Positions 506 to 43,754 of a stretch of 64,000 nt of DNA are shown piece by piece. The position numbers were made by a program, and so were the translations under genes. The notes beneath the pieces are model-generated. The model did not search any database, was not told the origin of the DNA, and was given only the letters and a program-made list of their open reading frames with translations. The stretch's first letter is position 1. Each line of letters starts with the position of its first letter. The stretch comes from an uncultured Halobacteriales archaeon (lineage in GTDB: Archaea > Thermoplasmatota > E2 > JACPAO01 > JAHFTW01): assembly GCA_964643795.1 (NCBI GenBank), contig CAZXUC010000016.1:5102-69101 (forward strand). The letters are read 5' to 3'.

Positions 506-883
506 TCAGCCGGCCTCTTGTGAACGGGTAGGCTCCGCCACGGATTCATCGCCGCCCGCCTCCCCCACGTCCGCATGCGTGCGCGCCACGGCGAGCATGG
601 AGAGTGCCGTGATGATCGCCATCAGGAGCATGGAGACCGCCACCAAGAATTGACCGGAGCCAACGTCCAGGCTTTGCTCCCAGCGCGCCGAGACCATGCC
701 ACTTCCCGCGCGCAACCCGACCACAGCCACGACGGCCACGACGAGCCGATGCGCCCAAGATTCCCAAAGGATGGCCACGACGTGGGAGCCTTCCTCTAGC
801 AGTCCGTCTGCGCGCAGCATCGCGTCGCGGGCCCTTTGGCGGCGCTGATTCAGCCGCGTCTCGCGCAGCCGGATCCTAGGCAT
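506..883 (-). CDS. small membrane protein, last gene of the operon
   Basis: Two hydrophobic segments. The ATG overlaps the stop of the upstream gene (ATGCCTAG, 8-nt overlap). Confidence 0.65.
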   Translation of the reverse strand: MPRIRLRETRLNQRRQRARDAMLRADGLLEEGSHVVAILWESWAHRLVVAVVAVVGLRAGSGMVSARWEQSLDVGSGQFLVAVSMLLMAIITALSMLAVARTHADVGEAGGDESVAEPTRSQEAG

Positions 884-1478
884 CGTCTTCTCCGGTCTTC
901 GTTCTTCCAGCGCGTCCCAGACGAAGCAGTCGCCACCCGGTCAGTCCCAGCAGGAACGCCGCGACGACGGCCCCGACGGGGCCCACGGATGTCGCGTCGA
1001 TGCTGACCTCCCAACGCGCAGAGACCCAACCCGCCGTAAGAACCAAGACGTGAAAGAGGACCCACGCCACGCCAGCCGCCAGCAGGCAAACGACAATAAT
1101 GCGGCGGCTAGCAAACGCCACCGCCTCGTGGGTGCGCACCCGCCCCTCGGGCGTCACTTCCTGGTCCTCATGCATGCGCGCCTCCAACTTGAAGGTGAAG
1201 TAGGCCGCCACGACGGCCGCGAGTCCCAGTACAGCCAACGTCCCCGAGACGCCTTGCCGGGGCCCAGCGGACCAAGCCAACGCCAACGCCACGCCAAGAG
1301 CGAACTCAAGGATGCCCCGACGCTTGACAAAGACATGGACGACCACGAAGCCAAGCGACACGGCCGCCTGCACGAACACCCACGTCGATTCCAGGTTCGA
1401 AGCCGCATCAGGGACCAACGCAGAGCCAGCCAACAGCGCAAGGCCTGCAATCCACGACGTGGGGTGACGCCAATTCAT
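876..1478 (-). CDS. polytopic integral membrane protein (200 aa)
   Basis: About 5-6 hydrophobic segments. ATGA overlap with the DUF58 gene stop at 1475-1478. Confidence 0.8.
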   Translation of the reverse strand: MNWRHPTSWIAGLALLAGSALVPDAASNLESTWVFVQAAVSLGFVVVHVFVKRRGILEFALGVALALAWSAGPRQGVSGTLAVLGLAAVVAAYFTFKLEARMHEDQEVTPEGRVRTHEAVAFASRRIIVVCLLAAGVAWVLFHVLVLTAGWVSARWEVSIDATSVGPVGAVVAAFLLGLTGWRLLRLGRAGRTKTGEDDA

Positions 1479-42900: not shown

Positions 42901-43754
42901 ATCGTGGTTACGGGATTGAGGGAAATGGCGTGCCATGCAACTTGGCGGGTGAGTTCCTGTTGGTTGTCGGCGGGGTAGCTATCAAGGCGCGTCGGGCGTT
43001 CTTGAAGCACGATGCTTTCGATGATGACGCGCAGGGAAGGCACGTGGCTGCCCCAGAGCGCGTTCCACGCCCCCTCTGCGGGTTCGGTTTCATCCGAGAA
43101 CAACGTGTCTTCCACGAGTTCCTGAAGGGAGGCAATGTTATCGTCCCACAGCCCAGACCACGCATCACTAAACGGGTCGAGGTCGGACTCGCTGATGCCA
43201 AGCTCTTCAAACAGTTCCGCCACCATCTCTTCTGGCGAGACGTAGACTTCGACGTTGATCGTGACGGTGCCCGTGAATTCCTTGTCGTCTTCGTCGTACG
43301 TGCCGTCGAAAGCGGGGAAGGTGACGCTCTTGGTCGTACCGGCCGGCACCTTCACGGAAACGGACACGGGACCCCATGAGCCATCGGCATCGCTAGCCGT
43401 GGCGACGACTGCGGCATCGACTTGGGTCTTGCCGTGGTTCTTGACGACTGCCGTGATGGTGTTGTCCTCGCCAATCACGATGGGGCCGCTCACCGGTTGG
43501 TTGACGGCACCCGCCACGAAGACCGAGACGGCCTCCAGGCTCAAGTCGATCGGCCCAGGGCCTTGTGCAGTCGTGGGCGCAACCAGGATGGATCCGCCGG
43601 CAATGGCCAGGACGCAAAACAGTGACAAGGCCGTCGTTCGCGCCGAGAGGGCGCCTCCAGAATCCATCGGGCTTTTGGACGGCCATGCGGGCCTGACGCG
43701 CTTGGCGGAGGGACGCCACATCAAATGCATTGATTCGCGGCGAGTAATTAGCAT
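39918..43754 (-). CDS. secreted CARDB/NEW3 multi-Ig surface protein (1278 aa) with canonical PGF-CTERM; first gene of the operon
   Basis: GAGGTG SD-like motif 8 nt before ATG 43754 (alternative start 43667). CARDB DLAIGGV...LDLDDEIPE...N. Tail DAPGFSGVWILLLVAGLAAGRIRERRR. Confidence 0.87.
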   Translation of the reverse strand: MLITRRESMHLMWRPSAKRVRPAWPSKSPMDSGGALSARTTALSLFCVLAIAGGSILVAPTTAQGPGPIDLSLEAVSVFVAGAVNQPVSGPIVIGEDNTITAVVKNHGKTQVDAAVVATASDADGSWGPVSVSVKVPAGTTKSVTFPAFDGTYDEDDKEFTGTVTINVEVYVSPEEMVAELFEELGISESDLDPFSDAWSGLWDDNIASLQELVEDTLFSDETEPAEGAWNALWGSHVPSLRVIIESIVLQERPTRLDSYPADNQQELTRQVAWHAISLNPVTTIPSGYQLNVENGEEWQSLIWVTNEGTRDDVVDIHLEDASLDWDFQLDYTFLLLPTNDSEKAVIVTMKGKPTVAAGDQGQVKLVVTSRNAPLTATNSATLVSPPAQVNGKLAIAILEPLSVSIAAGSSTSFKATVKNLQNQDLTITLLPVEPTNDGWSGTLPGSQTATGIGPGVTAEFTVNIGVGSAVIHGTYDFNVAVTTHVDSTLRAAPVSFTVDVLQWHGVDFTLTKDLQGNSLPKQVEPGSLTPISFNVENKGNGVDSFQISLIDAPLGWQLVDANGVPPAAFVLDPFDTEIIGSHFLKTPATTLPGTKSIRLRITSELSGATTDVITHDLAVPARVFPGITITGNACQGEAFVCAMAEDSELVVPLTITNHGNVAGDLDLTALKVGSQGWTALLTPESFTLASGASAQATLTITSPATIAIDDAATIALKLLAKTQHQGNVTNKDLVAVGAFADLAIGGVSNDPSPLYLNVPGEFTFEVKNEGVADAGAFDAKVVYSAGGATVSTKTAAIPSLAKGATTSITVDVPTLAGYKNLKATITLDLDDEIPEYAVHANTVEVDLTLRTFDIQVTAPSDMIVDSGQAISLEGTLGFLVENAGSSAESLVITLEADQPWTAKAWPVEALAPAASKRYGTNFFIPDWPESMFAEVTLRVRHAVHGTLEAEASFTIRVNDAEPPQIQSYPLDVDEVPRARSVNFTARIWDPSGIDAAKVILLLPTGVEQRIAMTYDDVTERHFAVVQLTSPGPTEWYIWARDASPDKHENNTAAAPHSVRVLSESQPRLNLVSPAPGQSIRPGQQVIIALADTTGIQSAEAVVLGETIILPNTHPIMLATDAWPDGAVAVTVSIVDLFGSSAHETYTIQVDGTPPSIGAAFFDATAAGEASNVVVRVTDNDRVAKVMLRVDPGAGGAARDEVMSADGASFSVQVLYPSKGGSLTVIATDAAGNTASKLILGEGGIDSVAGQDAPGFSGVWILLLVAGLAAGRIRERRR

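Follow-up and report, generated by a model that had tools for sequence, protein, structure and literature searches.

Does a row of eleven closely packed genes, six of which encode very large surface proteins, specify one functional unit, and if so of what kind? The question is raised by a locus in the window analyzed here, a 64,000-nucleotide stretch from an uncultured archaeon, which a preliminary description of the sequence took for a candidate undescribed envelope or adhesion apparatus. The locus represents one of nine paralogous cassettes in its genome. The reading that we favor, and consider moderately probable, is that it encodes an ATP-driven transmembrane base with a surface array of giant proteins that is remodeled from inside the cell.

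Organization of the locus

Eleven consecutive minus-strand ORFs occupy positions 506-43754, and the ORF listing and translations confirm that they abut or overlap just as first reported, with 4-nt ATGA, GTGA, or TTGA overlaps at 37471, 25745, 15264, 11353, 4886, and 1475, 8-nt overlaps at 3726 and 876, a gap of 0 nt at 2731/2732, and a gap of 2 nt at 39915/39918. The reported size of the six large proteins is likewise correct (1278 + 814 + 3909 + 3494 + 1304 + 2156 = 12,955 aa). The features are as follows.

47563..48906, minus strand: candidate cassette regulator, 447 aa, membrane-tethered, with two winged-helix domains (HTH_HVO_0163_N and HTH_24/MarR_2)
43755..44330, no strand: non-coding stretch upstream of g1, the likely promoter region, with GAGGTG 12 nt before the g1 ATG
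39918..43754, minus strand: g1, 1278 aa, with a signal peptide, CARDB/NPCBM_assoc-type Ig domains, and a C-terminal tail consisting of DAPGFSG, a transmembrane segment, and RRR
37471..39915, minus strand: g2, 814 aa, with a signal peptide, two OmpL47-type beta-barrel domains, Big_13/Big_7, and three C-terminal transmembrane segments
25745..37474, minus strand: g3, a giant of 3909 aa, with a signal peptide, DxxGxDx[YFW] repeats at aa 702-2147, and a C-terminal anchor tail
15264..25748, minus strand: g4, a giant of 3494 aa, with a signal peptide, a large N-terminal part, a CARDB/FixG_C/NPCBM_assoc stalk at aa ~2720-3260, and a C-terminal anchor tail
11353..15267, minus strand: g5, 1304 aa, with an all-beta N-terminal head of 640 aa, then ~5 CARDB/NPCBM_assoc domains and a C-terminal anchor
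4886..11356, minus strand: g6, 2156 aa, with an N-terminal transmembrane segment, a TSP3 region, an Ig-type stalk, a transmembrane segment at aa 2019-2037, and a cytoplasmic DUF4129 tail
3726..4889, minus strand: g7, DUF4350 (arCOG01314-type), with an N-terminal transmembrane segment/signal, an extracytoplasmic domain, a transmembrane segment, and a short cytoplasmic tail
2732..3733, minus strand: g8, MoxR AAA+ ATPase (AAA_3 and AAA_lid_2), with Walker A GVGKS and Walker B LLADE in the translation
1475..2731, minus strand: g9, DUF58 (vWA-like), with two N-terminal transmembrane segments and a cytoplasmic domain
876..1478, minus strand: g10, a 200-aa protein with four transmembrane segments, a homologue of which follows DUF58 in the paralogous locus C1
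506..883, minus strand: g11, 125 aa, with 2-3 transmembrane segments, a partial duplicate of the g10 family

The starts of g2 (39915) and g6 (11356), chosen over those of the longest ORFs, are supported by a GGAGG 10-11 nt upstream (11 nt from the g2 ATG). Shine-Dalgarno matches of at least 5 nt accompany 5 of the 11 starts, compared with 6.5% of random positions. The DNA of the locus is 65% GC and contains many long plus-strand ORFs, which are regarded as shadows because Pfam hits, paralogues, and orthologues are confined to the minus-strand ORFs. Scanning the coding strand for promoters and terminators was uninformative: a TATA-like sequence was matched once, weakly, and T5-T6 runs turned up at four sites, two of them within the signal-peptide codons of g3 and g4.

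Large surface proteins and their anchoring

All six large proteins are predicted to be membrane-anchored rather than released. The topology of g1, g3, g4, and g5 comprises a signal peptide, a C-terminal transmembrane segment, and an Arg tail; the giants are acidic and rich in Ig-type domains and number five to six per set. The description of these proteins as different heads on Ig stalks holds for the parts that were compared. Ig-type Pfam hits do fall in the membrane-proximal C-terminal parts, and the repeat region of g3 is real, with 15 strict DxxGxDx[YFW] copies; g3 gave no Pfam match, including for the propeller that had been proposed, and a PDB sequence search with it was also empty. The N-terminal part of g4 produced a weak MAM-like match alone and no strong Pfam match, and its PDB sequence search returned nothing. 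Of the smaller members, g1 has orthologues in C1 and in two other Thermoplasmatota genomes, G029 and G013 (25-29% identity), while g2, which scores 102 bits against NF047446, is restricted to loci of one layout, type A.

A tripartite tail, [DE]-x-P-[GA]-x-x followed by 15-20 hydrophobic residues and RRR, ends 27 of the 27 giants and g5-like proteins across the nine cassettes. Judged by sequence, the giant tails share the layout of exosortase/archaeosortase signals (Pro-Gly motif, transmembrane helix, and Arg cluster), and PGF-CTERM and PEP-CTERM type substrates carry the same tripartite C-terminal signal. None of the NCBIfam sorting models matched the tails, the best being MYXO-CTERM at 16.4 bits, below cutoff. 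The genome does contain an exosortase/archaeosortase-family gene, on contig C27 (TIGR04178, 64 bits), which fits no named subtype. Heavy N-glycosylation of the giants was also considered and was dropped as unsupported because sequons occur at or below expectation, with no enrichment.

A universal subunit with an unusual head

Whichever giants a cassette has, g5 is present (9/9), each time alongside g6. With 162 representatives in the searched sequence library, g5 is the defining member of an unnamed family of ~1300-aa proteins. The AlphaFold model of its head was poor with 7 sequences (pLDDT 51); with a 79-sequence alignment it reached pLDDT 90 and pTM 0.89. Foldseek found no counterpart of this model in the PDB; the hits were beta-sandwich resemblances covering parts of it, with TM at most 0.15, to reelin, Vip3 C-terminal domains, and cupins. 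Neither an enzymatic nor a binding function can be assigned, and a PDB sequence search with g5 returned nothing. A search for related loci with a 3-sequence g5 alignment recovered just the two already-known relatives.

The membrane and ATPase module

Following its N-terminal transmembrane segment, g6 has ~1100 aa with TSP3-type Ca-binding repeats and then a Big_1/MG2/MG4/CarboxypepD_reg stalk. Its DUF4129 tail scores 18.0 bits by hmmscan and 25.7 bits in the genome search (cutoff 24.8), and those of its paralogues score up to 47.7 bits; the genome has exactly nine DUF4129 domains in all, each at the C terminus of a g6-like giant. The transglutaminase core (PF01841) is absent from g6 and from all eight paralogues, and a six-frame search of the genome found it at C35:10104 and C14:22135 only. 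Cross-linking of the giants by a g6 transglutaminase is therefore excluded for this genome. Nor does g6 have the polytopic TgpA_N domain, its single N-terminal transmembrane segment leading straight into the TSP3 repeats. Distant relatives of g6 are TgpA-like, combining TgpA_N, Transglut_core, TSP3, Ig, and DUF4129, and the genes that come after them encode DUF4350 and DUF58; TgpA_N itself was found solely in one of them, P0074. By domain content, g6 is related to TgpA-like proteins but has no transglutaminase core.

The DUF4350 assignment of g7 rests on a PF14258 match (E 3.7e-6, 27.8 bits) that lies under the cutoff of 30.4, while type B paralogues score 51-53 bits; its transmembrane segments are at aa 6-24 and ~283-301. 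DUF4350 and DUF58 are fused in the type C cassettes of this genome and on one JGI contig, which argues for their physical association, and the number of transmembrane segments in the fusions places DUF58, by prediction, in the cytoplasm. Both g8 (AAA_3, E 1.5e-62, 209.7 bits; AAA_lid_2, E 1.4e-24) and g9 (PF01882, E 2.4e-11, above cutoff) are clear assignments. The C-terminal half of g11 is 50% identical to a 206-aa protein of C1.

Nine cassettes

The genome contains nine such cassettes in three layouts (A, B, and C), which together span 356,850 bp, or 12.8% of the assembly. Gene order in relatives had been named beforehand as a test of the functional-unit proposal, and the order g1-g2-g3-g4-g5-g6-DUF4350-MoxR-DUF58 was found to recur in the paralogous locus C1 and in two other Thermoplasmatota genomes (G029:C10 and G013:C7), one from another family and one from another genus. 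Across these loci identities are 25-36% for the giants and 61-67% for MoxR. Such retention of order at low identity suggests that the genes are a functional unit and not a chance row of independent adhesins; this much of the original proposal is supported, whereas the claim that the unit is undescribed is not (see below).

Sequences of g5 from the nine cassettes are interleaved in the g5 tree with those of other genomes, which excludes recent tandem duplication as their origin; on this phylogenetic evidence the cassettes are ancient paralogues. Near each of the nine lies a double winged-helix regulator, of a family with 21 members, 11 of them within 6 kb of the cassettes, and in G013 the regulator homologue ends 57 nt before g1. 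That the locus is one of nine favors a repertoire of diversified cassettes over one envelope structure. The four type C cassettes have no adjoining MoxR gene; the ATPase therefore cannot be obligatory in cis.

Proposed mechanism and alternatives

In the inside-out model that we favor, g5, g6, DUF4350, DUF58, and the four-transmembrane protein would make up the transmembrane base, on or beside which the variable giants g1-g4 would sit as a surface array that binds other cells, polymers, or particles. That the heads bind anything is an assumption, since the g5 head has no recognizable fold relative and neither g3 nor g4 matched the PDB or, strongly, any Pfam family. As in other MoxR-vWA pairs, DUF58 would recruit a MoxR hexamer, which may spend ATP to assemble, load, or remodel the array from the cytoplasmic side, with control passing outward by way of the tails of DUF4129 and DUF4350. 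On this view, the nine cassettes, which have diverged and each have a winged-helix regulator of their own close by, would form a repertoire for different conditions.

The strongest competitor reverses the direction of control. The giant filaments could be extracellular antennae for a partner, epibiont, virus, or particle, whose signal passes through the g6 transmembrane segment and DUF4129 tail to DUF58-MoxR, to the membrane-tethered winged-helix regulator, or to both. In favor of this, DPANN epibionts are known from Thermoplasmatota hosts, sequence divergence is much faster in the heads than in MoxR, and both the interleaving of the nine diverged cassettes with sequences of other genomes and the tethered regulator near each of them fit a sensory role. 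Moreover, the experimentally tested Esr pathway, compared below, follows a similar logic of filament, MoxR, vWA, and transglutaminase-family protein. However, the parts that give Esr its output are missing from the operon: Pfam detected no Ser/Thr kinase, phosphatase, or FHA domain in the 11 genes. The three clear kinases of the genome (Pkinase above the Pfam cut-off) are far from all cassettes, a weak, below-cut-off Pkinase match (C11:33140) lies ~6.6 kb from the cassette on C11, and one FHA gene lies ~2 kb from a giant of a single cassette, that on C5. In addition, g6 lacks the transglutaminase core, Esr is essentially confined to Actinomycetes, and g8 matches the bpMoxR model of conflict systems only marginally. 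Membership of the Esr pathway is ruled out by the lack of a kinase, phosphatase, and FHA set, and a sensor array in general appears possible but rather unlikely. More specifically, the cassettes might be an archaeal receptor repertoire, each with a filament set for a different partner, epibiont (e.g., DPANN archaea), virus, or particle. This is still somewhat less probable; if true, it would provide a differently wired archaeal counterpart of the actinobacterial threat-sensing pathway, in which the DUF4129 tail relays the signal to DUF58-MoxR and the cassette-specific winged-helix regulator.

Alternatively, DUF4350, DUF58, MoxR, and the four-transmembrane protein may be a dedicated machine that exports or inserts the adjoining giants. 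Export of very large substrates often calls for dedicated help, but these giants all bear ordinary N-terminal signal peptides, which makes Sec export the simplest route. Moreover, apart from the 200-aa four-transmembrane protein no pore-forming or polytopic channel component is evident, and MoxR does not adjoin four of the nine cassettes. We therefore consider this machine doubtful, although it is the reading preferred in PMC5898192, which notes the GldG-like fold of DUF4350 and its mostly membrane and secreted neighbors.

Finally, that these are independent adhesins beside an unrelated housekeeping MoxR module, packed tightly by genome compaction only, is very improbable and is disfavored by synteny: 4-nt overlaps are common in compact prokaryotic genomes, and on one related archaeal contig the TgpA-like/DUF4350/DUF58 trio stands with no additional giants, but the complete gene order is retained at low identity between families as well as among the nine paralogous cassettes. 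Moreover, g5 accompanies g6 in each cassette, and DUF4129 is fused to a giant in 9/9.

Comparison with known systems

In scale, a parallel is Giant1-5 of Apilactobacillus kunkeei, where consecutive genes encode extracellular proteins of 3000-8000 aa and take up 6% of a small genome (PMC12863079), compared with 12.8% here. That locus is bacterial and single, and the part of PMC12863079 drawn on here mentions no MoxR/DUF58/DUF4350/DUF4129 module; the analogy is one of scale only. The MoxR-vWA-beta-propeller ternary conflict systems (Kaur et al. 2020, PMC7159879) use a bpMoxR-clade ATPase, the model of which (PF20030) g8 matches at 27.7 bits (cutoff 27) against 209.7 for AAA_3, and no effector-bearing vWA protein was seen at the locus.

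The Esr pathway, studied experimentally in Schaalia odontolytica, senses Saccharibacteria epibionts by means of MoxR, vWA, a transglutaminase, and a filament of Ig repeats that bears a beta-propeller head, and is essentially confined to Actinomycetes according to its authors (bioRxiv 10.64898/2026.09.08.750141). It shares with the present cassettes, as predicted from their sequence, a surface filament that is built of Ig-like repeats and has a variable head at its far end, MoxR, vWA, a transglutaminase-family membrane protein, fast-diverging sensing parts, and the possibility of several pathways per genome. The output of Esr depends on a Ser/Thr kinase, a phosphatase, and an FHA protein, and the pathway has a link to Esx secretion, none of which belongs to the cassettes; moreover, the EsrD transglutaminase anchors EsrA, whereas the filaments here carry their own transmembrane anchors.

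In bacteria, an MRP-type MoxR, DUF58, and transglutaminase trio is described as a recognized conserved arrangement in PMC6803598, which cites Wong and Houry 2012. Examples of such systems are the Bifidobacterium PFNA cluster, pkb2-fn3-aaa_atp-duf58-tgm (PMC6803598, PMC8430577), and TgpA of Pseudomonas aeruginosa (PMC3507681). Shared with these operons are an AAA_3-type MoxR beside DUF58, a membrane protein ending in DUF4129, and a surface FN3 or Ig protein encoded in the operon. In contrast to them, neither g6 nor any of its eight paralogues has the transglutaminase core or TgpA_N, there is no kinase, DUF4350 is present, and there are more surface proteins, of far greater size.

These bacterial relatives have been studied, and the core of the locus, comprising the giant with the DUF4129 tail, DUF4350, MoxR, DUF58, and the small four-transmembrane protein, matches the arCOG01314 neighborhood, which was predicted in 2015 to be an archaeal secretion or membrane-remodeling complex (Makarova, Galperin, and Koonin, PMC5898192); the locus thus cannot be called undescribed. 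That work noted a GldG-like fold in DUF4350, neighbors that are mostly membrane and secreted proteins, and a vWA partner described as "likely secreted." Common to both are DUF4350 with a signal peptide and C-terminal transmembrane segment, a COG0714 MoxR ATPase, a vWA-type partner, membrane or surface neighbors with Ig domains (here g1, g2, g4, g5, and g6), and small polytopic proteins (g10 and g11). The present system differs in that the Ig partners are giants of 1300-4300 aa, one of which bears DUF4129, in the addition of the ~1300-aa g5 family, in its nine-fold multiplication in one genome, and in its vWA partner, DUF58, a domain predicted to be cytoplasmic.

What is new, therefore, is the presence of nine cassettes in three layouts, their status as ancient paralogues, the regulators nearby, and a g5 family whose modeled head has no PDB counterpart. 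Archaea and bacteria widely share the MoxR-DUF58-DUF4350-DUF4129 gene set, for which one actinobacterial pathway supplies the only known role. In the cassettes, fusion ties the module to a likely client, with DUF4129 as the predicted cytoplasmic tail of a giant surface protein, and the conserved partners of the module (g5, at least two giants, the four-transmembrane protein, and the nearby winged-helix regulator) point to candidate substrates and surfaces of interaction. The allocation of about one eighth of a 2.8-Mb genome to giant surface proteins in an uncultured archaeon bears on how Thermoplasmatota build their surfaces and interact with particles or other cells. Collectively, gene content and order are best explained if the locus is a Thermoplasmatota elaboration of the predicted arCOG01314/TgpA-type membrane module.

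Results

Organization and junctions of the minus-strand gene row

The window has a GC content of 65% and long ORFs on either strand; among these ORFs, domain matches, paralogues and orthologues were found only for the minus-strand series at 506-43754. ORF listing and translation returned the eleven genes of the preliminary description, together with its junctions (4 nt of overlap at six, 8 nt at two, and gaps of 0 and 2 nt at the remaining pair), and its total of 12,955 aa for the six large products.

Features of the row (g1-g11, all minus strand, numbered from the transcription-upstream end) and of its upstream flank
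g1, g4 and g5: CARDB, NPCBM_assoc and FixG_C-type Ig domains in the C-terminal parts (Pfam)
g2: two OmpL47-type barrel domains (Pfam/NCBIfam); three C-terminal transmembrane segments (TMs; hydropathy)
g3: 3909 aa; no significant match in Pfam or PDB sequence searches; 15 strict DxxGxDx[YFW] repeats
g6: 2156 aa; TSP3-type calcium-binding repeats, then Big_1/MG2/MG4/CarboxypepD_reg, then a weak DUF4129 match
g7: DUF4350 (Pfam); N-terminal TM and a late TM (hydropathy)
g8: MoxR AAA+ ATPase, intact-looking (AAA_3, E 1.5e-62; Pfam)
g9, 1475-2731: DUF58, vWA-like (Pfam); N-terminal TM hairpin (hydropathy)
g10, 876-1478: small polytopic protein, 4-TM type (hydropathy)
g11, 506-883: small polytopic protein (hydropathy)
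44331-46887, minus strand: gene pair (675 aa and 174 aa) between the candidate regulator and g1, unrelated to the cassette
47563-48906, minus strand: double winged-helix protein, the candidate regulator, 447 aa (HTH_HVO_0163_N, HTH_24/MarR_2)

GGAGG precedes the shorter starts chosen for g2 (39915) and g6 (11356), and a Shine-Dalgarno match of at least 5 nt accompanies 5 of the 11 starts, compared with 6.5% of random positions. These matches are compatible with ribosome re-initiation on a polycistronic message and are not proof of one; promoter and terminator motif scans of the coding strand were uninformative. Oligo-T runs are able to terminate archaeal transcription, and a T6 run (37421-37426) and a T5 run (25696-25700) lie on the coding (minus) strand ~50 nt past the starts of g3 and g4, within signal-peptide codons (Phe-Phe and Phe-Leu). 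They could serve read-through attenuation or may be coincidental.

Membrane anchoring of the giant proteins

Hydropathy analysis of all products indicates that every one except MoxR is membrane-bound. [quoted passage not shown] The g6 protein has a TM at its N-terminus and another at aa 2019-2037, beyond which ~120 aa form a cytoplasmic tail. The large proteins are predicted, then, to be membrane-anchored rather than released. All 27 giants and g5-like proteins of the nine cassettes share a tripartite tail composed of [DE]-x-P-[GA]-x-x, a hydrophobic helix and RRR; these tails match none of the curated NCBIfam sorting models, so their processing can only be inferred. An exosortase/archaeosortase-family protein of 341 aa (C27:6248-9925, locus L037, ORF 1216-2241; TIGR04178, 64 bits), which lies outside all named subtypes (archaeosortase C scores 58 bits, cutoff 100), is a possible enzyme for such tails. 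The same P-G-x / TM / RRR tails are present on further surface proteins of this genome.

Nine cassettes in three layouts

In the assembly (2.78 Mb, 62 contigs, 88% complete), a crude whole-genome ORF scan combined with BLAST identified nine cassettes, that is, rows of giant surface-protein genes with a DUF4350/DUF58 module, with or without MoxR. Together they take up 356,850 bp of the assembly (12.8%). Six MoxR genes of the AAA_3 type were located by six-frame searching.

Cassette layouts (contigs in brackets)
Type A (window on C16, and C1): g1-g2-g3-g4-g5-g6-DUF4350-MoxR-DUF58-4TM
Type B (C2, C12, C14): giant-giant-g5-g6-DUF4350-MoxR-DUF58-4TM; C14 has an additional FN3/PKD protein
Type C (C19, C11, C20, C7+C5): g6, DUF4350::DUF58 fusion, ~200-aa 4-TM protein; two giants and a g5-like protein follow in either order; no MoxR adjacent

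Contigs C7 and C5 both stop within a giant gene (C7:1-460, C5:113441-113462) and jointly match the C19 layout; the assembly has probably separated them as two ends of one locus. A genome search found DUF4129 exactly nine times, always C-terminal on g6-like giants and above cutoff in the window copy (25.7 bits), which confirms the weak g6 match. None of the nine g6 paralogues contains a transglutaminase core. Transglut_core occurs in this genome on C35 and C14 only, the C14 copy (22135-22521, plus strand) lying ~4 kb upstream of the type B cassette.

A DxSxS metal-site motif is usual in vWA/DUF58 proteins. At the presumed corresponding position, g9 and its eight paralogues all carry D-[VAS]-R-x-x-[ST/G], and the conserved Arg suggests a non-canonical site. 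In C1 the gene after DUF58 encodes a 206-aa homologue of g10, and g11 is a partial duplicate from this family, its C-terminal half being 50% identical to that of the C1 homologue, to which g10 itself is less close.

In the 447-aa candidate regulator, a TM at the N-terminus is followed by an extracytoplasmic segment rich in Ser, Thr and Pro, another TM and a pair of winged-helix domains. Several members of its family are membrane-tethered, and the family is strongly associated with cassettes: 11 of its 21 members in the genome lie within 6 kb of one of the nine, where ~1 is expected, and in type C the gene is directly upstream of g6. At the place of the 44331-46887 gene pair the C1 locus has just 1.4 kb, and in genome G013 the regulator homologue stands directly before g1, ending 57 nt upstream; the pair thus looks like a local insertion. 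An FHA-domain gene (C5:91307-91510, minus strand), one of three in the genome, lies ~2 kb downstream of the last giant in the C7+C5 cassette on the same strand, a position that could be due to chance.

Conservation and ancestry

The whole type A gene order is kept in G029 (contig C10; same taxonomic order, different family) and G013 (contig C7), with identities of 25-36% for the giants and 61-67% for MoxR. Such conservation, which the preliminary description had named as a check on its single apparatus, favours a functional unit and makes mere co-location of giants and module genes less likely. In genomes G017 and G002 the parts of type C are present in divergent arrangement. A word-indexed search yielded few g6 homologues of full length (11), and remoter matches are TgpA-like (TgpA_N, Transglut_core, TSP3 repeats, Ig stalk, DUF4129); for one of these, on an archaeal contig, the next genes encode DUF4350 and DUF58.

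The g5 head (aa 1-640) was modelled as all-beta (pLDDT 90, pTM 0.89, 79-sequence alignment), and a Foldseek search of the PDB returned no real counterpart. Its profile matched 162 of 1.84 billion cluster representatives, ~130 of them 1250-1440 aa long, and 26 of 401 sampled Thermoplasmatota genomes (17 of 162 genera, at least seven families); full-length g5 occurs in only a minority of related genomes. The family is rare, patchy in distribution and unnamed. In the g5-head tree the paralogues form three clades corresponding to the three layouts, each grouping more closely with sequences of other metagenomes than with the sister cassettes. This placement rules out recent duplication as the origin of the nine cassettes and marks them as old lineages, retained or acquired. 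The public protein P0120 is at almost zero distance from the C19 g5-like protein (C19:42697-49674), indicating that public assemblies include a very closely related strain or this population itself.

Discussion

The locus is real and striking. Its giants form a conserved, membrane-anchored set in which g6 bridges outside and inside and ends in DUF4129, and the TM count of the DUF4350-DUF58 Rosetta-stone fusion puts DUF58 in the cytoplasm. On this basis, g5, g6, DUF4350, DUF58 and the 4-TM protein would form a transmembrane base, and DUF58 would recruit MoxR, as happens in other MoxR-vWA pairs, to assemble or remodel the surface array from the cytoplasmic side.

The chief alternative reverses the direction, with outside-in sensing as in Esr, a related actinobacterial cluster shown by experiment to sense Saccharibacteria epibionts (2026 preprint, bioRxiv 10.64898/2026.09.08.750141). 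Its parts are a secreted filament of Ig repeats bearing a beta-propeller head, MoxR, vWA, a transglutaminase that keeps this filament on the cell, and a set of Ser/Thr kinase, phosphatase and FHA protein (bioRxiv 10.64898/2026.09.08.750141). The archaeal cassettes share its logic of filament, MoxR, vWA and DUF4129 protein, whereas they lack the kinase/phosphatase/FHA set and the transglutaminase core, which rules out their membership of Esr. Sequence alone cannot separate the two directions. Dedicated secretion, as proposed in 2015 (PMC5898192), is less likely than either.

The preliminary description had presented a candidate undescribed apparatus, but the system is not of a new kind: Makarova, Galperin and Koonin had already described the clustering of DUF4350, MoxR and vWA genes with those of Ig-domain membrane proteins and of small polytopic ones, and had modelled this set as a putative complex for secretion or membrane remodelling (PMC5898192). 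A recognised bacterial gene order places DUF58 and a transglutaminase after MRP-type MoxR, and in Bifidobacterium these genes, with a kinase and an FN3 adhesin, make up the PFNA operon (PMC6803598). The locus is a giant-protein variant of an already predicted, uncharacterised archaeal system and is related to bacterial MoxR-DUF58-TgpA-type operons.
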